From Alphaproteobacteria bacterium (GTDB lineage: Bacteria; Pseudomonadota; Alphaproteobacteria; Paracaedibacterales; VGCI01), in contig JAIESE010000036.1 of NCBI GenBank assembly GCA_019746225.1, positions 11,519 to 75,518 of the forward strand: DNA of 64,000 nt. The letters run 5' to 3'. Below, piece by piece: positions 8,152 to 58,508 of this stretch. A program made the position numbers and the translations under genes. How positions within the stretch are numbered: the stretch's first letter is position 1; every line of letters begins with the position of its first letter. The notes beneath the pieces are model-generated. The model was not told the DNA's origin. It did not search any database and was given only the letters and a program-made list of their open reading frames with translations.

Positions 8152-9492
8152 ATGCCTAAAAATTCCAATTCTCATGTCACCCTTCTTGCAAGCTTGGGGT
8201 CTACCTTAGAGTATTATGATTTCGTGGTGTACGGCATGATGGCAACTTATTTGAGCGTTGTCTTCTTTCCCCCTCACAATCAAGCCGCTGCCGTATTGCA
8301 ATCCTTTTTGGTCTTTGCTGTAGGCTATTTCGCCCGGCCCTTAGGAGGCACTGTTATAGGCGTAATCGGCGATCGTTGGGGGAGAAAGCCTGCTTTCTTG
8401 CTATCAACTTCCCTCATGGCCGCAAGCACCCTATTCATCTCTTGTCTTCCCAGTTACGAAACTTCCGGACATATTGCGGTATTTCTCCTCATATTGTTTC
8501 GTATTATTCAGGGCCTTTCTTTTGGGGGTGAATTACCAGGGGCTATGACCATTGTGGCTGAATTCTCAACAGAACATCGTCGAGGGAGAAAAACGAGCCT
8601 CGTAGTGGCAAGCACCAGTCTTGGAGCGCTCTTGGCCAGCGGTGTCCTCTATCTTCTCGCAGCAACCTTGAGCCGCGAAGAAATTATCGCTTGGGGATGG
8701 CGTCTTCCCTTTATGGGTGGCGGGATCTTGGGCCTCCTCCTTCTGATTGCCAGAAATACAATTCAAGAAACGCCCGCCTTTCAAGCCCTAAAAAGTAATC
8801 TCAATACGAGGGAACCCTTGATAGCCTTGTTTCAAGAACACAAACTTTCTCTCCTCAGAGGCGCAGCATTAACTGCCTGTATGGCTGCCCTGATCATCAC
8901 CAATCTCTATTTCCCTTATTTCATTCCAAAGTTCTATGGGTATGAATCAAAGGATGTTTATTTCGCAACGACGGTCAGCCTTGTTTTTGTGATCTTGATG
9001 CTTCCGATCGCGGGCATCGTGGCAGACTTGTTTCGTCAAAAAGAGACACTCTTGCGGCTGACTTGTAGCTTATATATAGCCCTTTCCCTGCCTATTTTTT
9101 CATTACTTTCCCTCAAGTCAGTGCCTTTATTGATTGCGTTTCTCATCATTCAACAACTCTTCATCGCGCTTTGTGCCCCGAGTCTTTTCCCCATTATCCT
9201 TCGACTCTTTCCCACAGAAGTGCGCTACACAGGGATTGCGGTGTGTTATAATCTCACCTGGGCACTGATGGCAACGCTTCCCATGGCTTACACTGCTCTT
9301 CTTGATAATTATGCAGCCCCTTGGGTCGTTCCTGGCATGTTATCTGTAATTGCTGGCCTGTCAGCGTTGGCAACCTGGGGTTTGAAAGGGGGGATAATGG
9401 AAACGATCCCTAATCGGATAGGTAATCATGCGGTTAATGAGAGTGGAAAAAATAGGCCAGCTCTTACAGGAACTGACCCAACTTCTTATTAA
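8152..9492 (+). CDS. MFS transporter, metabolite:H+ symporter (ProP-like) family
   Basis: The 446-aa product has about 12 hydrophobic segments. It carries LEYYDFVVYG and the GDRWGRKPAFLLS loop motif typical of the MHS family. Confidence 0.85.
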   Translation: MPKNSNSHVTLLASLGSTLEYYDFVVYGMMATYLSVVFFPPHNQAAAVLQSFLVFAVGYFARPLGGTVIGVIGDRWGRKPAFLLSTSLMAASTLFISCLPSYETSGHIAVFLLILFRIIQGLSFGGELPGAMTIVAEFSTEHRRGRKTSLVVASTSLGALLASGVLYLLAATLSREEIIAWGWRLPFMGGGILGLLLLIARNTIQETPAFQALKSNLNTREPLIALFQEHKLSLLRGAALTACMAALIITNLYFPYFIPKFYGYESKDVYFATTVSLVFVILMLPIAGIVADLFRQKETLLRLTCSLYIALSLPIFSLLSLKSVPLLIAFLIIQQLFIALCAPSLFPIILRLFPTEVRYTGIAVCYNLTWALMATLPMAYTALLDNYAAPWVVPGMLSVIAGLSALATWGLKGGIMETIPNRIGNHAVNESGKNRPALTGTDPTSY

Positions 9493-9598: not shown

Positions 9599-9781
9599 TT
9601 ACGCCTTTGCCCAGTCTCTATGGAGAACTTCTGCTTTCAACCAGTTCCCCGTGCTCCCATGAACAAACGAACCAACAGTCCCTTGGCAACTTTTACAATC
9701 ATGGGTATCCCCTTCTACGCCTAGGGAATATTGAGCCAAAACTAATATGACAAAAAATAGTATCGTCCTAATATTATCCAT
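9599..9781 (-). CDS. Possible small secreted Cys-containing peptide (60 aa)
   Basis: An internal ATG at 9781 is preceded on the minus strand by GAAGGAGAAAGAAA. The product MDNIRTILFFVILVLAQYSLGVEGDTHDCKSCQG... has a signal-like N-terminus. I recognise no homology. Confidence 0.3.
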   Translation of the reverse strand: MDNIRTILFFVILVLAQYSLGVEGDTHDCKSCQGTVGSFVHGSTGNWLKAEVLHRDWAKA

Positions 9782-10271
9782 TTTCTTTCTCCTTCTATCA
9801 TGACACTTCAAAAGATCTCCCCATTGTGTAAGAGAAAACTAAGAGCGGGCATTGAAACCCCTGAGGCCCAGTGATTCGCCTTTAAAGGCTCTTCGATTTT
9901 TCGCTGCCCACGAAAAATTGTCTAAAACCAAATCACCAGATCTTATAAGGCCAATGCCCTAACCGCTCCTTTTAAAATCACCGTAAGGAAGTATTCTAAA
10001 CTTTTTTATCCGGAAAGAAGGCGTAAGTAGTCTACTTAGGTACATATTACGTATAGAATTTTAGATAATATATGTGGAATTTAGCGCTCTGGGACAATGT
10101 TCTTTCATCTCGGCATTTTGTGAGGACGTCAACCCCATTGAAAAATATATAAAAGCAAATGAATTCGGCGTAGTATGTAGCAGACTCTTCTCTTCATTTG
10201 AAGGGGCGAGTTCATAAAATTAATAACGAATAAGAGTAAATTTAATACTCTGGAAATTGTAAGGAACCATA

Positions 10272-13200
10272 ATGGAACATAAGGAACTTAGCGCTCCTCT
10301 GAATCTTTACGATGAAAGCTTAACCACAATAAGTGGCATAAAGTTCACCCATCGAGAGATGGACATTATTACCTTTATCTTTCATACAAGGGGCTCCAGC
10401 AAAATTGCCTCCCTTCTATCCATTTCTAACCGAACTGTTGAAACGCATACCGCAAATATCATGCGAAAAATGGATACGAACTCCAGAGAAGGCATTATAG
10501 ATTTTGTGAGCAAGCACGGGCACACCCTTCGTATTAAAAAACACTACCAAGCTCTGTTAGTCCAACTTAACTTCACCAAAAGACTGCAAGAAGTCTTTCG
10601 CCTTACTAAAAACAAGAATTTTACAAGCACCATCGTATTTAATGATACGACCCATGAGGAAAGGACTTTTCTGAACGCTCTTAAAGGTCATCTTGGTCTT
10701 TGCGGCATCAGTACAGTCTTAATTGAAAACAAGGATGAGAAGCCTATAGGAGATGTTAGCTCCCAAAATATTCTCGAGCCAAATGATCACATCCTTTATC
10801 TCGTCCCTCAAAAATTTTTAGAAGCCTATCAAAATAATTCCAAGAACCAAACAAAATCAATAGAAACGCTTAACCTAAATTCCGGGACTTTTACCTTCTT
10901 AACATGGGGAATGAAGCAACTCAGCCTGCCAAATGTGTTTTATGAAACAAACTCAGTCTGTTTTGAGGAACATGAAGACTATTTCTGCACCTTTTTTAAG
11001 CTCATCAAGAGAATGCTCCCGGATATAAATATCGATCCAATTATGTCCTCATTTCAAAAAGACCAGGAATTAACTAACGAAGTTTTGCAGCAAGATATTT
11101 TCGACCATGGTACCCTCTTAGAGAAAACGACACAGCAAATACCCACTCCTAAAAGAAGAATAGCAAAGCTCTTGTTTGTTGCGTCTACTCTTGTGGGCAC
11201 GGTATATCTTGGCCTTTCATTCCATAACATTAGTAAAGGCAGCTGGTTCAATAGGACGGACTCGAAAACATCGTCTTCAATCCGTTCTGATCTGCTTGTT
11301 CCTACCGACAATATATTCCTCAAACGTCCAAACGTGATCACGAAGATTGCAGAGGGTTTGAAAGAGAAACAAGGAATTCAAACGGTTGCAATTGTTGGGA
11401 TTGGAGGGGCAGGAAAAACAACCATCGCCCGACAATATGCCTTGAAGCAAAACGCCAATATCGTTTGGGAAATTAACGCAGAAACCAGAGAAAGCATCAA
11501 AGATTCTTTCGAACACCTAGCGTATGCTCTTTGCAAATCTGAAGAGGAGCGTAAAAGATTAATGGGGCTACAAGGTATCAAAAATAAAATTGAGCGGGAT
11601 GAGAAAATTCTTCTCCTTGTCAAAGAAAAATTAAAACAATATTCAAACTGGTTTCTCATTTATGACAACGTCAACAAGTTCACAAGCATCCAGCAGTATT
11701 TTCCTTGTGACTCAAAGGCATGGGGAGAAGGAAAGGTCATTATTACCACAACTGACAGCAATACGAAAAATAATAGTTTGATCAATAATTTCGTTTACAT
11801 AGGGGAGTTATCTCCAAATGAAAAACTGAATCTTTTTATGAACATCATGGGAAATGAAACAAGTCACACCTTCACTCCTTCCCAAGCAGAACAAGCCAGA
11901 ACTTTCTTGAATGATGTTCCACCCTTTCCGTTAGATGTATCAATTGCAGCTTATTATTTGAAATCAACCAACACGCCTTATGCTAAGTATCTCGAGAAAT
12001 TAAAGGAAGATAGTACGGATTTTGAAACGATCCAAGAAGATGTCGTCAAGGAAGCAAGCGGCTATACAAAGACACGATATAGCATCGTCTCTCTATCTTT
12101 GAAGCAACTCATTGAGACCCATCGAGATTTTGCCGATCTTTTAACATTGATTAGCCTCCTCGATTATCAAAATATCCCACGACCCCTCCTTTCGAGTTAT
12201 AAAAGTGACATTGTTGTTGACAACTTTATCTATAATTTAAAGAAGTATTCCTTGATAACCTCCGAGACTTCTGTAAATTCAATTTCTACGGTCTCTTTTC
12301 ACAGAGCAACGCAGGAAATTCTTCTCACCTATCTAACAAAGGCATTAGCCCTGTCAAATAAGAGCCCCCTTATAAATGACATCGCATTGTCTCTCGAGTC
12401 TTATATGGTTGAAACAATTGAAAACGAAGATTTTTCACGTATGAAACTCCTTGTTCCCCATTGCGAAGCCTTTCTTAACCGCGATCCATTACTCAATTCA
12501 AAAATGGAGGGTTCAATTGGGGGTGCCTTGGGTTGCATATATTACTATTTGCGCTACAATCTTCAAGCGAAGCAACATCTTGAAACAAGTTTGGCAAGTT
12601 TAAATCCGCATGAAATCAATAATCAGGATAAGATTGCCCGGATTTTAGCATATCTGGGGAGTTTTTATAGAGCCCAAGGCGATTATGAAAAGGCCAAAAC
12701 TTTTCTGGAACAAAGCCTTATTATTTATGAAAAAACACCAAACCATGTAAAAAGCACGAGAGCCCTAGGTTATTTGGGAGTCGTTTATCGAGATTTAGGC
12801 GACTACAAACGCGCCAAGCTTCTGTTAGAGCAGAGCCTAGAAATTCATGAGAAAAATGCACAAAATCAAATTGGCCATGCCTGGATTCAGGCGCATTTAG
12901 GAAACATCTACGCCATTTTGGGGGACTATAAAAAGGCGAATTTGTTACTTGAAAAAAGCCTCTTGATTTATAAAAAGCAAGCTGAAGACTATGTCGGTGT
13001 TGGATGGGTTTTGGGATATTTAAGCAATGTTTACCGAGGATTGGGGGACTTTCAGAAAGCACGAACTCTTGCAGAACAAAGCCTTACAATCACCAGAAGC
13101 AATTTTTCGGACAGCCACATTTATGTAGCCTCCCGTCTCGCGATTTTGGGTGCAGTCTATAATGAACTTGGAGATTATCAAAAAGCACGGAGTCTATTTG

Positions 13201-13589
13201 AAGAAAGCTTGCATATTTATGAGAAGGAATATGGTAAAAACCACAACGATACCGCTCGTGTCTTAAAATTGTTGGGGGAAACCTATTGCCTTGAGGGCGA
13301 CGTTGAAACCGCAGAAGAACTGCTCAACAAAGCCTTGCTCGTCTTCCAGCTCAAGAAATCTCCTGAAGCTTATAAATCACTCGAAAGTTTAGGTGATTTG
13401 TATTTGAAAAAAGGCAAGATAGCAACGGCAGAGGGGGACTTCAAGCATGCTCAGTCCTACAATATCCAAGCACTAAATTATTTTAATCAAGCCTTGGCAA
13501 TGACAAAAGAGTATTTCCAAGAAGATTCCCCTCATACATTAAGAATTAAAGTAAAACTGAATAGTATGCCGATGGCTCAGGTTGCATAG
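10272..13589 (+). CDS. STAND NTPase: N-terminal LuxR/GerE HTH, one TM helix, NB-ARC P-loop domain, C-terminal TPR array
   Basis: The HTH is FTHREMDIITFIFHTRGSSKIASLLSISNRTVETHTANIMRKM. The hydrophobic helix KRRIAKLLFVASTLVGTVYLGLSF lies at about nt 11164..11226. Walker A is VAIVGIGGAGKTTIARQYA (about 11396..11422) and Walker B-like is WFLIYDNVN. At least 7 TPR units of KLC type follow, each of the form LG..Y...GDY.KA....E.SL.I. Confidence 0.85.
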   Translation: MEHKELSAPLNLYDESLTTISGIKFTHREMDIITFIFHTRGSSKIASLLSISNRTVETHTANIMRKMDTNSREGIIDFVSKHGHTLRIKKHYQALLVQLNFTKRLQEVFRLTKNKNFTSTIVFNDTTHEERTFLNALKGHLGLCGISTVLIENKDEKPIGDVSSQNILEPNDHILYLVPQKFLEAYQNNSKNQTKSIETLNLNSGTFTFLTWGMKQLSLPNVFYETNSVCFEEHEDYFCTFFKLIKRMLPDINIDPIMSSFQKDQELTNEVLQQDIFDHGTLLEKTTQQIPTPKRRIAKLLFVASTLVGTVYLGLSFHNISKGSWFNRTDSKTSSSIRSDLLVPTDNIFLKRPNVITKIAEGLKEKQGIQTVAIVGIGGAGKTTIARQYALKQNANIVWEINAETRESIKDSFEHLAYALCKSEEERKRLMGLQGIKNKIERDEKILLLVKEKLKQYSNWFLIYDNVNKFTSIQQYFPCDSKAWGEGKVIITTTDSNTKNNSLINNFVYIGELSPNEKLNLFMNIMGNETSHTFTPSQAEQARTFLNDVPPFPLDVSIAAYYLKSTNTPYAKYLEKLKEDSTDFETIQEDVVKEASGYTKTRYSIVSLSLKQLIETHRDFADLLTLISLLDYQNIPRPLLSSYKSDIVVDNFIYNLKKYSLITSETSVNSISTVSFHRATQEILLTYLTKALALSNKSPLINDIALSLESYMVETIENEDFSRMKLLVPHCEAFLNRDPLLNSKMEGSIGGALGCIYYYLRYNLQAKQHLETSLASLNPHEINNQDKIARILAYLGSFYRAQGDYEKAKTFLEQSLIIYEKTPNHVKSTRALGYLGVVYRDLGDYKRAKLLLEQSLEIHEKNAQNQIGHAWIQAHLGNIYAILGDYKKANLLLEKSLLIYKKQAEDYVGVGWVLGYLSNVYRGLGDFQKARTLAEQSLTITRSNFSDSHIYVASRLAILGAVYNELGDYQKARSLFEESLHIYEKEYGKNHNDTARVLKLLGETYCLEGDVETAEELLNKALLVFQLKKSPEAYKSLESLGDLYLKKGKIATAEGDFKHAQSYNIQALNYFNQALAMTKEYFQEDSPHTLRIKVKLNSMPMAQVA

Positions 13590-13604: not shown

Positions 13605-14135
13605 TCATCGGGATACTTTCTTCAACCGGACATAAAGAGCGCCTCCGCCCCCATCTTGTGGTTTAGCCGTTGTATAAACGGACACGACAGCTCGAAAATG
13701 CGGTTCCTCAAGCCACTGGGGGACAAGGTCTCTCAAGCTTTTATAGGGACGTGTTTGAGAAGACCCATCCTGATCCAGTTGAGGTCGACCTTTCCCGGTA
13801 ATCACTAAAACCCAGTGACAGCCCCTCTCTTGGCTCGATACTAAAAACCGAGCAAGAGCTTCACGGGCCTTTTCCCGTGAAAAACCATGCAAATCGAGGC
13901 GCGCTTCAATGTCGACGTTACGAATCCTTTGAATCCGGTGGGAGGATGTCGACTGAGATATGTGAGGAAGCTCTGGTGGAAGCACCATAGGGGCCTTCTT
14001 TCGAAGAGTCCGATAGGGTTTAGAAGGGGGAGGCGTTACAGGCTTTTTTCCAGGCGACAGGGGTTTAACTTTTTTAGAGACGATTTCCCACAATGTTTGC
14101 TCATCTGGCGTGAGATCCCTTCTCTTCCGGGTCAT
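13605..14135 (-). CDS. Smr domain-containing protein
   Basis: LDLHGFSREKAREALARFLVSSQERGCHWVLVITGKG is the Smr domain core. The gene overlaps mltA by 4 nt. Confidence 0.85.
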   Translation of the reverse strand: MTRKRRDLTPDEQTLWEIVSKKVKPLSPGKKPVTPPPSKPYRTLRKKAPMVLPPELPHISQSTSSHRIQRIRNVDIEARLDLHGFSREKAREALARFLVSSQERGCHWVLVITGKGRPQLDQDGSSQTRPYKSLRDLVPQWLEEPHFRAVVSVYTTAKPQDGGGGALYVRLKKVSR

Positions 14136-16929: not shown

Positions 16930-18105
16930 ATGTTTAAAAATTTTAGAAATGCGATTATCAGTGTTTCAGCAGCTCTATTTTCCTTGTCTACCCTCACACC
17001 AAGCAGCTTTGGAATGGAAGACGATGGATCATTTCTTCCCAAACCCCGCTTTCAAAATACAAATAAAGAAAACGAAAGCCAACCCGCTTTCACCCCAAAA
17101 CGCGCTTCTAAGCTATGTGTATTCAATGCTGCCCTCTTTCATGATGCTGAGGAGTTTAGACAGCCAACAAAGAAAAAAACAAAACTACTCACCGCTGAAG
17201 AGGTAAATCTTGATGTTCTCACTCCCCGAAAATTAAATACATGTAAAGAGGCAGGCGTTTCCACCCCTGAATTAAGAGAGGGGATTGCTCAGGTTAAACG
17301 ACGCCATCCAAATAAAATCCAAGACACTGACCGTTTCCAGCCATCACACCAAGTTTTCTATAGTCCTGTGGCTCCTTTGGTGCTCTCCCGAACAGAGACC
17401 CTCGAAGCCCGTAAAGGGTCACATATCGTCTCTCTTCCCGCAACGGCCTTTATCAAAGCAGAGATGGTTGAAAGTCCGGAAGAACGACGTGCTCGTAAAG
17501 AAAAGCAAATGGCTGAATTTGAAGCCGCTGAGGCTGCAAGAGGCATTTCAATTGTCCATTTGGAAGAAGAAAATCAAACGGCTCTCCAACCATGGCTTGG
17601 TTTTTTTAAATATATTGACTTCAAAAAGGAACGTATCACATTGGGCTCAGATAAGAAGATGAAGTGGCCAGATATAGCAGATGCCTTCTCGAAATTTGTT
17701 GCGCCTCATATGAGTCGACACCAGATTGATGGATATGAAATTTATTATTTATTAAAAACCGTTGATTTCAATAGGGTCAATCCTTTAAACCAACATCCCA
17801 ATTATATAAATATGATGCATGGTGGTTGTCCTGTTGGAAGCGACAATGATTCTATGGAATGGCACCATGTCACTCGCTTTGATAAATCTCATAAGATCAA
17901 AATTGATGAGCCAACACTGCTCGCTTATGAAGGCCCTTTGAAGATTATTTTAATTCCTGCGTGGATTCATCAACAATACCGTCAACTTCACCTCGGCAGA
18001 TCATTCTATAAAAAGCCAAGAACTAAAATGGATCGCTCCTATTTTGGAGAATACCGCGAACTGTTCAACCAACATATTGTGAAAACACACTATACAATAA
18101 ACTAA
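16930..18105 (+). CDS. Secreted protein with C-terminal WHH-type HNH/EndoVII nuclease-like toxin domain
   Basis: The signal peptide is MFKNFRNAIISVSAALFSLSTLTPSSFG. The C-terminus reads GCPVGSDNDSMEWHHVTRF...KIILIPAWIHQQYRQLHLG, with WHH at nt 17860..17868. This matches the W-H-H ... (L/I)(V/I)P..(I/L)H .... H.G pattern of the WHH family. An AT-rich leader lies upstream. Confidence 0.55.
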   Translation: MFKNFRNAIISVSAALFSLSTLTPSSFGMEDDGSFLPKPRFQNTNKENESQPAFTPKRASKLCVFNAALFHDAEEFRQPTKKKTKLLTAEEVNLDVLTPRKLNTCKEAGVSTPELREGIAQVKRRHPNKIQDTDRFQPSHQVFYSPVAPLVLSRTETLEARKGSHIVSLPATAFIKAEMVESPEERRARKEKQMAEFEAAEAARGISIVHLEEENQTALQPWLGFFKYIDFKKERITLGSDKKMKWPDIADAFSKFVAPHMSRHQIDGYEIYYLLKTVDFNRVNPLNQHPNYINMMHGGCPVGSDNDSMEWHHVTRFDKSHKIKIDEPTLLAYEGPLKIILIPAWIHQQYRQLHLGRSFYKKPRTKMDRSYFGEYRELFNQHIVKTHYTIN

Positions 18106-24916: not shown

Positions 24917-26143
24917 TTAGTTTTTCACAAGTTTCACCCGTTTGGCAGGAACTTGTAGATTGCTACGGACAATCATTTCTGGATATTCAACAATCTCGAA
25001 ACCCTTGATCCCATTTAGAAACACTCGACTCTCGCGCGATAATGGGGATTGCTCGTTATTCGCGAAAATAAATAATTCACCACCCGGTTTTAAAGAGTTT
25101 ACCATGCTCTGGAATAAGGACTCATTCCCCTTACTCATAAAACCCTCTAGGCCAATTTCATCCTTAATATAGCTAACAGAACCTGAGGTGATACCAGCCC
25201 AAAGCGCAACATCTAAGCCATCAGCATAGATATCAGGACATTGTGTTGCATCGATGTTAATTGTAACTTCACCACGTGCTTTGTGGTCTTCTCGGCAGCC
25301 CGCACAATTGCTATGCTCATATTCATCGAGATTGAGGTTAGCTAGGGTTGAAACAGTCAAAAAATGTCCACACCCAAGGATAAGACCACGGGCTTGACTG
25401 CTCTCAATTTTAGCGTTCAAAAGGGCTGCTGGATTGTAGCGATAGTCAATTGGATTTTCTATAGTTGTTGAAATGATCCCACTCTTTCTCAACGCGTCCC
25501 AAGTGATTTGACGGGCTTTAAGAGGGAGAGGTTCTTCTCTATCAAAGCGCCCTTTTTCGGCATAGTCACACCCTGGAGGCATTTTAATGGATGACCCAAG
25601 GACATAATAAATGAAGCTATTCCAAAGACCCAGAGGTTGGGTTCCGTAAGTCTGCGTCCATTGGCTATAGAGTTCAAAGTCATTTATCTTATTTTGCTGT
25701 CTTTTCTCAAATTCGGCTTGTTCTTCTGCCACTTTCCTTTGAACTTCTTGATCAATAAGGTCTTCAGCGGCTCCACTTTCTTTTAAAACAACCTTCAAGC
25801 CCTCAACCGTTTTGACATTAAAGAATGAAATGGTAACTCCATGTTGTTCAGCAAGCATCAGCTTAAAATTATGCAGAGCTGATTTCAAATTAGATACCAG
25901 TTCGCTCTCATCCATGCTTTTAACAGCCAACGGAGGCAGTTCAGGTAATACGGATTTTTCAAAACCAGAAACTATGTCTTGAACAAACGTCAATTCCGAA
26001 TTGCTTTGAAGCATATCTTTAAAAGTTCGAACACTTTCAGAAGACGCCTTTAAAATAAAAGGAGCCAGACTCTGTGCCTCTTCCATAGCTTGAATATTGG
26101 AGATAGAAGAAAACAAAAGTGTAGACAAGAGAATACGTTTCAT
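24917..26143 (-). CDS. Exported hypothetical protein with C-terminal class I SAM-methyltransferase-like motifs
   Basis: The likely start is the internal MKRILLSTLLFSSISNIQA (signal peptide); the track ORF extends to 26185. The C-terminal half carries GLILGCGH (motif I-like), TINID and LKPGGELFIFANN (motif III-like). The assignment is tentative. Confidence 0.45.
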   Translation of the reverse strand: MKRILLSTLLFSSISNIQAMEEAQSLAPFILKASSESVRTFKDMLQSNSELTFVQDIVSGFEKSVLPELPPLAVKSMDESELVSNLKSALHNFKLMLAEQHGVTISFFNVKTVEGLKVVLKESGAAEDLIDQEVQRKVAEEQAEFEKRQQNKINDFELYSQWTQTYGTQPLGLWNSFIYYVLGSSIKMPPGCDYAEKGRFDREEPLPLKARQITWDALRKSGIISTTIENPIDYRYNPAALLNAKIESSQARGLILGCGHFLTVSTLANLNLDEYEHSNCAGCREDHKARGEVTINIDATQCPDIYADGLDVALWAGITSGSVSYIKDEIGLEGFMSKGNESLFQSMVNSLKPGGELFIFANNEQSPLSRESRVFLNGIKGFEIVEYPEMIVRSNLQVPAKRVKLVKN

Positions 26144-26359
26144 CGGGGTTTCCTTTAAATAATAATTTAAATAGTTTCTATTCACAAATAGGTACTAGGT
26201 TAATTGAAATATATATAGGAAATTTATTTTTATTTTTCAATCTGTTTCTTGATTTTAAACTTAAAAAACTCTTAAATAGTAGTGTTGTCATTCTTGTTTA
26301 TACAATTGGTGTTCAAAATCTCTTAGTCTTTAAGACAAAACAACAATCTGAAAACATCC

Positions 26360-45469: not shown

Positions 45470-46942
45470 ATGGCTGACGATAAAACAGACGCACCAGCAG
45501 CAGCAGAAGAAACCGCCCTCGATGTATTAATGTCGAAAGGTAAATTGGCTCGCGATGATTCGCAAAAACCATTTGCACGTGATTTGGTAACAGAATTTGT
45601 CAACCAAGTTCTCGAGCAAGGAACCGTTGTGAGCAACGATACGGTTGCCTTCATCAATCAACGCATTCTTGAAATTGATGATTTGATTGGGAATCAATTA
45701 AACGAAATCATGCATGACCCCGCTTTCCAGAAACTGGAAGGGTCTTGGAGAGGCTTAAACTACCTGGTGATGAATACCGAAACAGCTGTGCATTTGAAAC
45801 TTCGCTTAATGAACATTACCAAGAAAGAACTTCTGGACGATTTGGAAAAGGCCGTTGAATTTGACCAAAGCCAAATGTTTAAGAAAATCTATGAAGAAGA
45901 ATATGGCACGTTTGGTGGCCATCCCTACTCTTGTTTGGTTGGTGACTTTGAATTCACCCGCCATCCTCAAGATATGGAACTTCTTCAAAAGATGTCTCAA
46001 GTGGCAGCCGCCGCGCATGCACCATTCTTGACAGCGGCCGATCCAAAACTTTTTGATTTGGACAAATTTGAACACTTGGGCGTTCCAAGAGATCTTTCTA
46101 AGATTTTTGAAAGTCTTGAAATGATTAAGTGGAACTCTTTCCGCGAAACAGAAGACTCCCGTTATGTGGCCATGTTGTTGCCGCGGGTTTTGATGCGTCT
46201 TCCTTATGGAGCAAACACCCTTCCCGCAGAAGGATTGAACTTTGAAGAAGATGTGGCTGGTGCCGATACATCAAAATTCTGCTGGACAAATCCGGCTTAC
46301 ATTTTGGGTCAACGTATAACGAACGCTTTCTCACTTTATAAGTGGACAGCAGCGATACGTGGTGTTGAAGGCGGTGGCATCGTGGAAGGCCTTCCAGCCT
46401 TTACGTTCAAAACAACCGACGGCGATATCGCCTTGAAGTGCCCAACAGAAACAGCCATTACCGATCGTCGTGAAAAAGAGTTGAGTGATCTTGGCTTCAT
46501 CTCTCTGTGCCATTGCAAAGGAACAGACTATGCGGCGTTCTTTGGCGGACAAACAACACAAAAGCCAAAGATCTACAACTTAGATGATGCCAATGCCAAT
46601 GCGAACCTTTCCGCCCGTCTGCCGTATATTTTGGCAGCCTCTCGTTTTGCGCACTACATCAAAGTAATTATGCGCGACAAGATCGGTAGCTTCTTAACAC
46701 GGGACAACGTTGAAAAGTATCTCAACACCTGGATTGCAAGTTATGTGGTTATCAATGATAACGCCTCTCAACCAGTTAAGGCGAAATTCCCCTTAAGAGA
46801 AGCACGGATCGATGTCTACGAAATTCCAGGAAAACCAGGATCTTATCGGTCTGTCATTTACTTGAGACCGCATTTCCAAATGGAAGAACTATCGGCCTCG
46901 ATCAGAATGGTCGCAACCTTACCACCACCGGCGGCTCAATAA
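45470..46942 (+). CDS. tssC: T6SS contractile sheath large subunit TssC (VipB)
   Basis: The 490-aa product has DPAFQKLEGSWRGLNYLV, YSCLVGDFEF, AAAAHAPFLTAA, RYVAMLLPRVLMRLPYG and GFISL motifs. Confidence 0.93.
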   Translation: MADDKTDAPAAAEETALDVLMSKGKLARDDSQKPFARDLVTEFVNQVLEQGTVVSNDTVAFINQRILEIDDLIGNQLNEIMHDPAFQKLEGSWRGLNYLVMNTETAVHLKLRLMNITKKELLDDLEKAVEFDQSQMFKKIYEEEYGTFGGHPYSCLVGDFEFTRHPQDMELLQKMSQVAAAAHAPFLTAADPKLFDLDKFEHLGVPRDLSKIFESLEMIKWNSFRETEDSRYVAMLLPRVLMRLPYGANTLPAEGLNFEEDVAGADTSKFCWTNPAYILGQRITNAFSLYKWTAAIRGVEGGGIVEGLPAFTFKTTDGDIALKCPTETAITDRREKELSDLGFISLCHCKGTDYAAFFGGQTTQKPKIYNLDDANANANLSARLPYILAASRFAHYIKVIMRDKIGSFLTRDNVEKYLNTWIASYVVINDNASQPVKAKFPLREARIDVYEIPGKPGSYRSVIYLRPHFQMEELSASIRMVATLPPPAAQ

Positions 46943-53187: not shown

Positions 53188-53412
53188 ATGAAAAAAATTG
53201 AAGATATTAAAGGTCTCGGGATTTGGGTCCGTCAAGCGCGAAAAGAGCAAGGTCTAACACAAGAACAACTTGCAGCTACTTCCAGTGTAGGCATCCGTTT
53301 TATAAGGGAACTTGAGCAAGGAAAAGAAACCTGTCATATCGGGAAGGTCATGCAAGTCTTGCAAATGCTTGGGATTGAGATCTTTGCAAGGAAAAGAGGA
53401 GAGGTAAACTAA
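53188..53412 (+). CDS. hipB: XRE-family HTH antitoxin HipB
   Basis: MKKIEDIKGLGIWVRQARKEQGLTQEQLAATSSVGIRFIRELEQGK is a Cro/C1 HTH. Its stop overlaps the hipA ATG (TAATG). Confidence 0.8.
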   Translation: MKKIEDIKGLGIWVRQARKEQGLTQEQLAATSSVGIRFIRELEQGKETCHIGKVMQVLQMLGIEIFARKRGEVN

Positions 53413-54662
53413 TGACCCGTATTTTAGACGTCTATTTACACGAGCAACTGGTTGGAAAATTGATACAGGACAATTCAGGACGTTTGCAATTTCAGTATGA
53501 AGAAAATTACGTCTCCGATAAGAATTCAATGCCCATTTCTTTATCTATGCCCGTGCGATCAGAGCAATACGAAGAAATAAAAGTTCGTGCTTTTTTCTCC
53601 GGTCTTCTGCCCGATGATATCGCCCGTCACCGATTGGCCCGCTACTTAGGTGTTTCAGAGAAGAATCCATTCTCACTACTCGAAGCAATTGGAGGAGAGT
53701 GCGCAGGGGCTCTTGCTTTATATCCTGAAGGGGAACTGCCTCCCCCTCCTAAAAATGGAGATATTGAAAAACTTGACAACAAACAATTGAAGGAAATCCT
53801 AAATCTCCTAAAACGACGCCCCTTAATGGCAGGAGAAGACAATGTCAGGCTCTCTCTTGCAGGTGCTCAAGATAAGCTTGCCATCAGTTTAGTAGATGAT
53901 TGTATTGCTTTGGTGAGGGGAACGACCCCTACAACTCATATCCTAAAACCTTTGATAGAAGAGGTAAAAGACAGCGTATACAATGAATTATTCTGCTTAT
54001 CACTTGCCGCGCTACTAGAAATAGAAACACCACGCGCAGAAATCCGCTGGCTAGACGATACTCCCTACTTTCTTGTAGAACGTTATGATCGTCAAATTGA
54101 TTCGAACAACAAGATTGTACGGATACACCAAGAGGATTTCTGTCAAGTTTTGGGAGTTCTGCCAGAACTCAAATATGAACGTGAAGGAGGTCCAAGCGTT
54201 ACGCAAAGTTTAGAACTGCTGCAGAATCACTCTTTGCAACCTGCTGCTGATCGACTCGCGTTTATCCAAAGGTTGATTTTCAACTACCTCATTGGAAACT
54301 CAGATGCTCACGGTAAAAATAATTCTATTCTCTTTACAAATCGACTACCAAGATTAGCACCAGCTTATGATTTGTTATCAACTATTATATATCCAAATCT
54401 CTCAAACAAGATGGCAATGAAAATAGGAGGCAAATATGACCCTGAGGTTGTCCTTCTTCGCCATTGGCAACGAATTGTTCCTGATACAACCGTCGCAAAG
54501 AGAGCATTGAACAAAGACTTAATGAAGATTTCAAAAGACTGTCTAGAACAAGCACACACTCTCAAAGCAGCACTAAAAGAACAAGGGACTTACTCAATAA
54601 TATTTGATGATATCTGTCAGGTAATTAAAAAGAGATCTGATCACATCCTGAGGCAACTTTAA
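53412..54662 (+). CDS. hipA: Type II toxin HipA family serine/threonine kinase
   Basis: The 416-aa product starts with L.VYL....VG.L........F.Y (HipA N-terminal). It also has SLAGAQDKLA, and IGNSDAHGKNNSILF is the catalytic loop. Confidence 0.88.
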   Translation: MTRILDVYLHEQLVGKLIQDNSGRLQFQYEENYVSDKNSMPISLSMPVRSEQYEEIKVRAFFSGLLPDDIARHRLARYLGVSEKNPFSLLEAIGGECAGALALYPEGELPPPPKNGDIEKLDNKQLKEILNLLKRRPLMAGEDNVRLSLAGAQDKLAISLVDDCIALVRGTTPTTHILKPLIEEVKDSVYNELFCLSLAALLEIETPRAEIRWLDDTPYFLVERYDRQIDSNNKIVRIHQEDFCQVLGVLPELKYEREGGPSVTQSLELLQNHSLQPAADRLAFIQRLIFNYLIGNSDAHGKNNSILFTNRLPRLAPAYDLLSTIIYPNLSNKMAMKIGGKYDPEVVLLRHWQRIVPDTTVAKRALNKDLMKISKDCLEQAHTLKAALKEQGTYSIIFDDICQVIKKRSDHILRQL

Positions 54663-58085: not shown

Positions 58086-58508
58086 ATGACCAGATGGCCT
58101 ATAAGCCGGGTTTTGTCCGCAAAGCTTCAGATTTGCATCCTACTTTACTGTATGACTATTCATCTGGGACGACAGTTACCTGTCGCCTCTAGCGATCAAC
58201 CCGGATGACCTGCACAAACACAGTTGAGGGGTTGCCCCCTCGCTCATCCCTATTAGATCTTGCTCCGAGTGGGGTTTGCCCTGCCACCTCTGTTACCAGA
58301 GGTGCGGTGCGCTCTTACCGCCCCATTTCACCCTTACCGTTGAGTTGCCTCAACGGCGGTATATTTTCTGTGGCACTTTCCCTAAAGTCAGCCTTTGTCA
58401 ACTGACCCCGGCGGACGTTATCCGCCACCCTTATTTGTGTGGAGCCCGGACTTTCCTCCAACCTCGAGGTTGCCCTCAAAATCAGCAGTCATCCAGCCAT
58501 CTGGTACT
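58086..58508 (-). ncRNA. rnpB: RNase P RNA, bacterial class A
   Basis: The minus strand contains GGAGGAAAGTCCGGGCTCCACA (complement of 58441..58462). It also has GGTAAGAGCGCACCG, GGCAAACCCCACTCGGAGCAAG, and the 3' ACAAAACCCGGCTTATAGGCCATCTGGTC, which pairs with the 5' ACCAGATGGCTGG to form P1. The ends are approximate. Confidence 0.9.

Follow-up and report, generated by a model that had tools for sequence, protein, structure and literature searches.

The gene at positions 10272-13589 (plus strand) of the 64,000-nt alphaproteobacterial stretch analysed here, referred to as the window, encodes a protein of 1105 amino acids (aa) which, judged from its sequence, represents a large and undescribed family of STAND transcription regulators. 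In this family, a transmembrane (TM) helix and an extra alpha/beta domain are intercalated between an N-terminal LuxR/GerE-type helix-turn-helix (HTH) and a C-terminal NB-ARC nucleoside triphosphatase (NTPase) that is followed by a tetratricopeptide repeat (TPR) array. We tentatively favour, at not quite an even chance, the reading of the protein as a bitopic transcription factor of ToxR-like design whose STAND sensor lies outside the cytoplasm. With more reserve we put forward the fuller proposal, that it would be the first extracytoplasmic STAND/NLR-type NTPase, with an NB-ARC-TPR ectodomain in the periplasm of energy-parasitic intracellular bacteria, where host ATP/ADP would arrive via the outer membrane, oligomerisation would be signalled through the inner membrane to the LuxR HTH, and paralogues would have expanded into a set of 'host-cytosol sensors'.

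Pfam searches and fold comparison gave the domain order HTH, hydrophobic helix, NB-ARC and TPR (Table 1), as it had been read in an earlier note made on this DNA from the sequence alone, and the protein is both a genuine NB-ARC STAND and a genuine GerE-type HTH protein. The HTH, placed by that note at about aa 20-80, has the GerE profile and the four-helix fold of LuxR/GerE-type regulators. It superposes at a root mean square deviation of ~1 Å on the DNA-binding domains of VqmA, CviR, LiaR, NarL and GerE (Foldseek), and its recognition-helix residues T55, H59, N62 and K66 are each at least 94% conserved in the family alignment. No Pfam match to Trans_reg_C or BTAD was found in the window protein. 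In the C-terminal half, Pfam NB-ARC (PF00931) matches aa 356-588 with 40.3 bits against a cutoff of 23.5. The motif positions are Walker A at G376-T384, Walker B at D465-N466, sensor-I at T494, a GLPL-like P553-L554 and an MHD-like H677. The Walker A (GIGGAGKTT) and Walker B (LIYDNV) sequences, both already picked out by the earlier reading, are conserved across the family, for which an alignment of 106 sequences was used. K382 of Walker A, P553, L554 and H677 are present in all 106, and D465 of Walker B in 103, followed in 101 by N466, which is not acidic; the sensor-I arginine is found in 77, the query having T494 instead. The best Foldseek match of this half in the PDB is the STAND+TPR protein 6mfv (E = 5e-14), and CED-4, NRC4 and RPP1 are matched too, so that Pfam score, Walker/GLPL/MHD motifs and fold all assign the domain to the NB-ARC clade of STAND proteins. 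Such near-invariance of the nucleotide-binding residues means that the NTPase is not degenerate and that nucleotide binding is under strong selection, and for this reason the topological question raised by the hydrophobic helix is a real one.

A full-length AlphaFold2 model was built from the 106-sequence alignment and had a predicted local distance difference test score (pLDDT) of 87.8. In this model the TPR array, for which at least seven KLC-type repeats had been noted, comprises eight helix pairs (aa 743-1081), with pLDDT above 94 over most of its length. Pfam TPR_12/TPR_10 profiles cover ~aa 780-1060 with 171 bits (TPR_12, E = 4.5e-51), exceeding their curated cutoffs as GerE and NB-ARC do, and Foldseek matches the array to the TPR domains of LGN and KLC. 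The juxtamembrane motif leading into the NTPase is also conserved, with R338, S339, D340, L341, P344, L350 and R352 each kept in 86-99% of the 106 sequences.

What follows the HTH is not the linker of about 200 aa that had been assumed: residues 85-280 form a confidently predicted folded module that is conserved across the family. The AlphaFold2 model of the N-terminal part, with HTH and alpha/beta module together, reached a pLDDT of 88.4 and a predicted template modelling score (pTM) of 0.86. Compared with the PDB by Foldseek, the alpha/beta domain gave weak matches (E ~0.01-0.03) to the alpha/beta half-domains of LacI, LysR and mGlu-type proteins. A TIR-like or receiver-like identity was considered and rejected, as Pfam returned nothing and Foldseek against the PDB gave no TIR or REC match. 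The module is kept in nearly all of the best 150 representative matches to aa 1-340 of the query and is missing from three short-form members, in which the HTH is followed directly by TM helix, NB-ARC and TPR in a ToxR-like layout. Residues 85-280 are a family-specific module, presumably on the cytoplasmic side.

Between the two halves of the protein lies KRR-IAKLLFVASTLVGTVYLGLSF (aa 294-317), which holds the highest-scoring 19-mer of the protein (Kyte-Doolittle 1.81); the candidates next in rank fall within a domain core and the P-loop strand. It is the sole TM-like stretch, in agreement with the single clear hydrophobic helix preceded by KRR that had been reported before. AlphaFold predicts a helix at 295-320, flanked by disordered segments at 280-292 and 319-333 and packed on no domain, and this position between disordered linkers speaks against a buried core helix, which the earlier note had named as the outcome that would undo the novelty of the protein. 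An equivalent hydrophobic segment occurs in all 105 aligned full-length homologues, 64-88 aa (about 76) before the P-loop, with a core of median length 20 aa and a median Kyte-Doolittle value of 2.23; its position and hydrophobicity are conserved and its sequence is not. The family helices are non-amphipathic (Eisenberg mean hydrophobicity <H>, median 0.78; hydrophobic moment muH, median 0.12). Of the 157 members in which both HTH and P-loop are present, a single TM-type segment was counted in 147, and in 9 it is weak or missing. The sole apparent 'second' segment (1 of 157) sits inside the alpha/beta domain, hence no genuine second helix was found, and after the P-loop 188 of 189 members have no TM-like segment. 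By these sequence and model criteria the segment behaves as a real transmembrane helix and not as a buried core helix. The topological paradox pointed out previously, one helix between HTH and NTPase, is real and conserved across the family. The explanations then offered for it, a re-entrant anchor or an effector element of the Avs/bNACHT type, are not supported: the helix core is non-amphipathic, ~20 aa long and never accompanied by a genuine second helix, and the protein has no PADLOC defence match.

Upstream of the gene we found a conserved element (10006-10057; Table 1) with four TAMGTA/TACKTA hexamer boxes, which include a 19-bp palindrome, CGTAAGTAG-T-CTACTTAGG. This block of ~52 nt is common to all eight upstream regions compared, those of the window gene and of its seven closest homologues, which lie in unrelated housekeeping contexts, and has the consensus TTATCCGrAAAnnAAGCGTAAGTA-N3-TACyTAAGTAC...TTACGTAtAGA. 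It matches the 64-kb window only once (1 found vs. 0.08 expected), and the four complete copies that turned up in an independent scan of metagenome data all lie 180-275 bp upstream of a family gene. Other members carry a related 21-bp palindrome, TCTAMG-N9-CKTAGA, 83-135 bp upstream, with the variants TCTACGTA-N5-TACGTAGA and TCTAAGGGAAAATCCCTTAGA. A scan of 940 kb of loci for this palindrome, requiring at least 11 of 12 specified bases, gave 19 sites, 11 of which fall at most 300 bp upstream of family gene starts, vs. 0.35 expected. The canonical 21-bp operator is absent before the window gene, whose subfamily has the related but differently spaced element. A reading of the upstream palindrome as RNA structure was rejected as well: a variable position is compensated in two sequences and broken in three, and a degenerate protein-binding half-site therefore fits better. 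Taken with the near-invariant recognition helix, the conserved upstream elements suggest that the family binds the element, which would make it a putative operator of the family's own LuxR-type HTH and the genes autoregulated. In locus L089 (2827-2848) a close relative of the element, TTATCCGGAAAATATGCGTAAGTACTACCTACGTACATA, occupies a 466-bp gap, family genes being absent from the 10 kb downstream of it; it may have been left behind by a lost family gene or mark a second target of the regulon. At L050 there is a TCTACGTATTTTCTACGTATA site ~70 bp upstream of a small LuxR/GerE gene of ~293 aa, so the candidate operator may serve more than one LuxR-type regulator.

The HTH must be cytoplasmic because it must reach DNA, and with one strictly conserved TM helix before the NTPase, a bitopic N-in/C-out arrangement is the simplest physical reading. 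The charges flanking the helix moderately favour the N-in orientation, K+R averaging 5.0 before and 3.3 after the helix (83 vs. 11 sequences; Wilcoxon p = 4e-13) and the net charge +3.6 and +1.0, respectively. In such a protein the N-terminal 295 aa would remain cytoplasmic and, as dimers or oligomers, bind the TAMGTA-box element upstream of the gene, which would then be autoregulated, and the helix would act as an N-in signal anchor, with the NB-ARC-TPR module facing the periplasm. A ligand would bind the TPR array, NB-ARC would exchange ADP for ATP and oligomerise as in STAND proteins, and this oligomerisation would cluster the TM helices and hence the cytoplasmic HTH domains, turning DNA binding on by the induced-proximity logic of ToxR and CadC.

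The ectodomain would depend on ATP, and the earlier note had taken the periplasm to be without it. This is not a safe premise for the carriers of the family. Those with names are Candidatus (Ca.) Caedibacter acanthamoebae (chromosome and plasmid), Ca. Paracaedibacter symbiosus (at least three copies) and Ca. Finniella, all three amoeba endosymbionts, and Caedibacter sp. 38-128; the named carriers are obligately intracellular and belong to a lineage with inner-membrane ATP/ADP translocases, which are a hallmark of its symbionts (PMC4198247). As the translocases sit in the inner membrane, host ATP/ADP is expected, from transporter biology, to be present in the periplasm when the bacterium is inside its host. 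The ATP problem could in this way be resolved by lifestyle, with host ATP being taken up through the translocases, and the regulator could double as a detector of being 'inside a host cell'. In the carrier lineage, the objection of missing ATP is weaker.

Several observations weigh against an extracytoplasmic sensor. We know of no extracytoplasmic STAND NTPase, and all characterised NB-ARC proteins are, to our knowledge, cytosolic. No nucleotide translocase was found among the 20 window ORFs (open reading frames) scanned with Pfam. The charge bias is modest and the C-terminal flank still net positive (+4 vs. +2 in the query), the query helix stands at the weak end of the family with its Kyte-Doolittle value of 1.81, and a regulator other than the family's own could bind the upstream element. 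Around 5% of intact paralogues have no helix (P0096, P0062, P0153, P0163 and P0176), which means that a cytoplasmic location is open to the NB-ARC-TPR module, and such copies sometimes occur in the same tandem array as TM-bearing ones. P0096 (L008:172-3357; 1061 aa) is the first gene of a three-gene tandem array, with a polar linker in place of the TM helix and two TM-bearing paralogues adjacent, and amounts to a natural experiment on the role of the helix.

The same points bear on the chief rival explanation, a membrane-tethered but wholly cytoplasmic STAND regulator whose helix only anchors or localises it, by monotopic or peripheral insertion or in an oligomer-dependent bundle, and which senses a cytoplasmic ligand by means of cytoplasmic ATP as AfsR, GutR and MalT do. 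In its favour, no STAND NTPase is known outside the cytoplasm, the flank on the C-terminal side of the helix carries a net positive charge, and intact TM-less and TM-bearing paralogues share a genome, as in the L008 array with P0096. Yet the helix is an uncharged stretch of 19-21 aa with a muH of 0.12 between two large soluble domains, with no obvious route by which both could lie on the same side, a two-helix hairpin, which would be a simple route to a cytoplasmic anchor, is found in no member, and AlphaFold packs the helix on no domain. We consider this explanation rather unlikely, though not negligible.

A further possibility is regulated proteolysis, in which sensing by the NB-ARC-TPR module would lead to cleavage in or near the TM helix and free a soluble HTH/alpha-beta fragment for DNA. 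The disordered linkers at aa 280-292 and 319-333 would be accessible to a protease, many split or truncated genes (P0121-P0126) encode a free N-terminal module, and intramembrane proteolysis is a known release route for membrane-tethered regulators. At the same time, no protease gene is conserved beside family members, and the short N-terminal ORFs resemble pseudogene fragments or contig ends and not a designed product. Cleavage would moreover need the same topology as the bitopic model, of which it is a variant and not a true alternative, and we regard it as quite improbable.

Comparison with known systems shows likeness of layout to several regulators, none of which has the full architecture. 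AfsR and its SARP-NB-ARC-TPR relatives in Streptomyces and GutR of Bacillus subtilis, the latter a matter of general background, have the same order of N-terminal DNA-binding domain, NB-ARC-type STAND and C-terminal TPR, and presumably share with the window family a nucleotide- and ligand-driven oligomerisation that controls DNA binding. However, the DNA-binding part of AfsR is a SARP (OmpR-type winged helix and BTAD), not a GerE/LuxR domain, and the alpha/beta domain and TM helix are inserted only in the window family. The NCBIfam AfsR model reached 53.6 bits against a cutoff of 1430, over the TPRs only, which does not make the protein an AfsR. MalT and the LAL regulators likewise join a LuxR-type HTH, a STAND NTPase and a helical-repeat sensor, with ATP and ligand driving oligomerisation and transcription activation, but their HTH is C-terminal, the reverse of the order seen here, their NTPase belongs to the MalT clade and not to NB-ARC, and they are soluble without a TM helix. 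In line with this, the NCBIfam MalT model gave 27 bits, over the HTH only, against a cutoff of 537, and the protein is not assigned to MalT/LAL. The layout proposed by us is that of ToxR, CadC and TcpP, in which one TM helix links a DNA-binding domain at the cytoplasmic N-terminus to a sensor across the membrane at the C-terminus, and the short-form members, with HTH, TM and sensor, come closest to it. The single TM helix before a C-terminal sensor is shared (147 of 157 members), whereas in ToxR-like proteins the DNA-binding domain is an OmpR-type winged helix and the periplasmic domains are small and do not bind nucleotides, vs. a GerE/LuxR-type HTH and an NB-ARC-TPR sensor of ~790 aa here; the likeness is one of mechanism, not homology. 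By profile and structure, the NB-ARC-TPR half is closest to the FxSxx-COOH system TPR protein (NF040586) and the archaeal STAND-TPR 6mfv, both matches being confined to this half and leaving HTH, alpha/beta domain and TM helix uncovered. NF040586 is the best NCBIfam match, with 208.8 bits over aa 349-896, and remains below its cutoff of 300, short of membership.

The family is large. A full-length search returned 381 matches, with a best identity of 60%, of which more than 100 are ~1100 aa long and have GerE, NB-ARC and TPR, and with aa 1-340 searched against 50%-identity representatives, 870 proteins were found at E <= 1e-10. Hundreds of 50%-identity clusters are spanned. The main carriers are Holosporales, Paracaedibacteraceae and Rickettsiales-like alphaproteobacterial genomes, a taxonomic restriction that rests on the labels of metagenome-assembled genomes (MAGs); besides those already named, they include many MAGs of Alphaproteobacteria, Rickettsiaceae and Holosporales, and a few with other phylum labels. 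The architecture had not been recognised as a described one, and this part stands: no description of the family was found in the literature searched, and in genome papers on Holosporales and amoeba symbionts we found no mention of LuxR, TPR or NB-ARC proteins. It is not rare, however, and of the earlier proviso that it might prove both widespread and characterised only the first half applies, as the more than 100 homologues are annotated in databases simply as 'TPR protein'. No synteny with the closest homologues was found, each being flanked by different housekeeping genes. Many genomes are multi-copy, with tandem arrays at L005, L008 and L030, and several copies are split or decayed, some beside conjugation genes.

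The family has expanded in copy number, forms tandem arrays, occurs on plasmids and often decays to pseudogenes; such traits are typical of conflict systems that diversify, and they are what an NLR-like conflict or defence role has in its favour. There, ligand-triggered NB-ARC oligomerisation would bundle the helices into a membrane-damaging pore, as with the TM effectors of Avs/bNACHT and the funnel of plant ZAR1. Avs and bNACHT anti-phage STANDs also combine a STAND NTPase, a repeat sensor and hydrophobic helices; their TM helices form N-terminal effector bundles and they have no DNA-binding domain. In the window protein the helix lies mid-protein between two linkers and not at a free N-terminus, and the highly conserved HTH and the conserved putative operator point to a transcriptional output. 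PADLOC models returned only generic TPR matches and a weak P-loop match to VakA (E = 0.004), no defence-system model being matched, and defence was rejected as a primary reading. In addition, intracellular carriers probably meet few phages. Overall, this role is very improbable.

Some loci of the family share neighbours. At 10 of 80 loci, a divergently oriented gene located 0.25-2 kb upstream of the family member encodes a protein of an orphan family of ~190 aa (Table 1). The consensus of this orphan family is MFxIIEP...ATFI...GIYGGA...FYRxLYxKL...FLCLTL...WPY...LFHGIL, and its 69 homologues, all 'hypothetical', belong to the same lineage. A LuxI-like autoinducer synthase was considered for it and rejected, with no Pfam match, no PDB profile match and only 'hypothetical' homologues; the protein may function as a partner of the regulator or be a target under regulation. 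An ankyrin-repeat protein and stand-alone small LuxR/GerE proteins (~276-295 aa) were observed a few kb upstream of some family members.

The window gene begins with an ATG preceded by an AAGGA site, and this site and a Met1 that is nearly invariant among homologues back the start of the 1105-aa ORF given earlier. The product is identical to NCBI record MBX9805377.1 ('MAG: tetratricopeptide repeat protein [Alphaproteobacteria bacterium]'). Upstream, an MFS transporter gene ends at 9492, leaving a gap of 779 bp, and downstream lies a convergent Smr-domain gene (13605-14135), much as had been described (a non-coding gap of ~780 bp and a convergent smr), with MltA, a Tim44-like gene and SecB in succession beyond it. 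Repeat and promoter scans of the gap gave nothing beyond chance. The statement that the gene stands alone holds for the window, where no homologue of the divergent ~190-aa partner gene was found, but not for the family, with its tandem arrays and divergent orphan partners elsewhere. Inside the gap, a 70-aa ORF (9599-9811, minus strand) has an internal Met at the head of a stretch resembling a signal peptide, MDNIRTILFFVILVLAQYSLG...; the small divergent ORFs that lie upstream of the closest homologues share no homology with it, and it may encode a small secreted protein or have arisen by chance.

Database records place both the window protein and P0013, a paralogue 54% identical to it, on a 415,413-bp contig, and an ankyrin-repeat gene lies near P0013. 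The window also holds a type VI secretion sheath gene (VipB/TssC; 45470-46942, plus strand), from which it follows that a contractile secretion system is encoded by the genome. These two genes, and the fact that the carriers live as symbionts of protists and abound in eukaryote-like repeat proteins, agree with the idea of an effector secreted into the protist host, where the helix would anchor the protein to a host membrane and NB-ARC-TPR would mimic eukaryotic NLR/TPR proteins. A bacterial LuxR-type HTH and a conserved putative operator before its own gene argue instead for action in the bacterium, and no secretion signal or secretion-system linkage was seen in the family loci and closest-homologue contexts; we hold this to be the least probable of the explanations, with hardly any chance of being right. 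Elsewhere in the window, a HipA-family toxin kinase gene with HipA_C and Couple_hipA domains (53412-54662, plus strand) suggests a toxin-antitoxin module, the bacterial class A RNase P RNA (58086-58504, minus strand; 303 bits) is the sole Rfam match, and two sizeable ORFs, 16930-18105 (plus strand, 391 aa) and 24917-26185 (minus strand, 422 aa), have no Pfam match.

Table 1. Coordinates of the window gene, its parts and upstream element, and of neighbours at other loci of the family
Feature	Position	Strand	Basis or remark
Whole gene: HTH / alpha-beta domain / TM / NB-ARC / TPR	10272..13589	+	Pfam, structure model, database match
Ribosome-binding site AAGGA	10261..10265	+	6 nt before ATG; sequence inspection
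Conserved cis-element TTATCCGGAAAGAAGGCGTAAGTAGTCTACTTAGGTACATATTACGTATAGA	10006..10057	+	266 to 215 nt before ATG; putative operator
GerE/LuxR-type helix-turn-helix, aa 25-78	10344..10505	+	Pfam GerE PF00196, 44.5 bits vs. cutoff 23.5, E = 1.2e-11
Long helix aa 85-112, five-stranded alpha/beta (flavodoxin-like) domain aa 117-250, helix aa 255-280	10524..11111	+	AlphaFold2
Single predicted TM helix aa 297-317, IAKLLFVASTLVGTVYLGLSF, KRR just before	11160..11222	+	Kyte-Doolittle, alignment, AlphaFold
Juxtamembrane motif S-I-R-S-D-L-x-x-P...L-x-R, aa 336-352, into NTPase	11277..11327	+	Conserved
NB-ARC / STAND nucleotide-binding oligomerisation module, aa 353-691	11328..12344	+	Pfam, Foldseek, motif conservation
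TPR sensor array, 8 helix pairs, aa 743-1081 (KLC/LGN-like TPR_12 type)	12498..13514	+	Pfam, AlphaFold, Foldseek
Loci with orphan ~190-aa gene	L012, L013, L016, L019, L023, L038, L043, L060, L065, L069; e.g. L013:434-1063	minus (L013)	
Small LuxR/GerE and ankyrin-repeat neighbours	L084:316-1146, L084:1208-2035; cluster 9 in L033, L050, L059		

STAND/NLR NTPases have key roles in immunity, cell death and transcription control across every domain of life and, as far as we know, have always been treated as cytosolic machines. The family described here either breaks this rule or reveals an unknown mode of membrane anchoring for STAND proteins. Should the ectodomain topology be true, it would be a categorically new use of the STAND module and possibly a new mode of signalling across the bacterial membrane, and the set of paralogues would link host state directly to bacterial transcription. 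For the protist and amoeba endosymbionts of the Holosporales, Paracaedibacteraceae and Rickettsiales-like groups, the family provides candidate regulators with a predicted operator, and periplasmic host ATP as a cue for being 'inside the host' is a directly testable idea.

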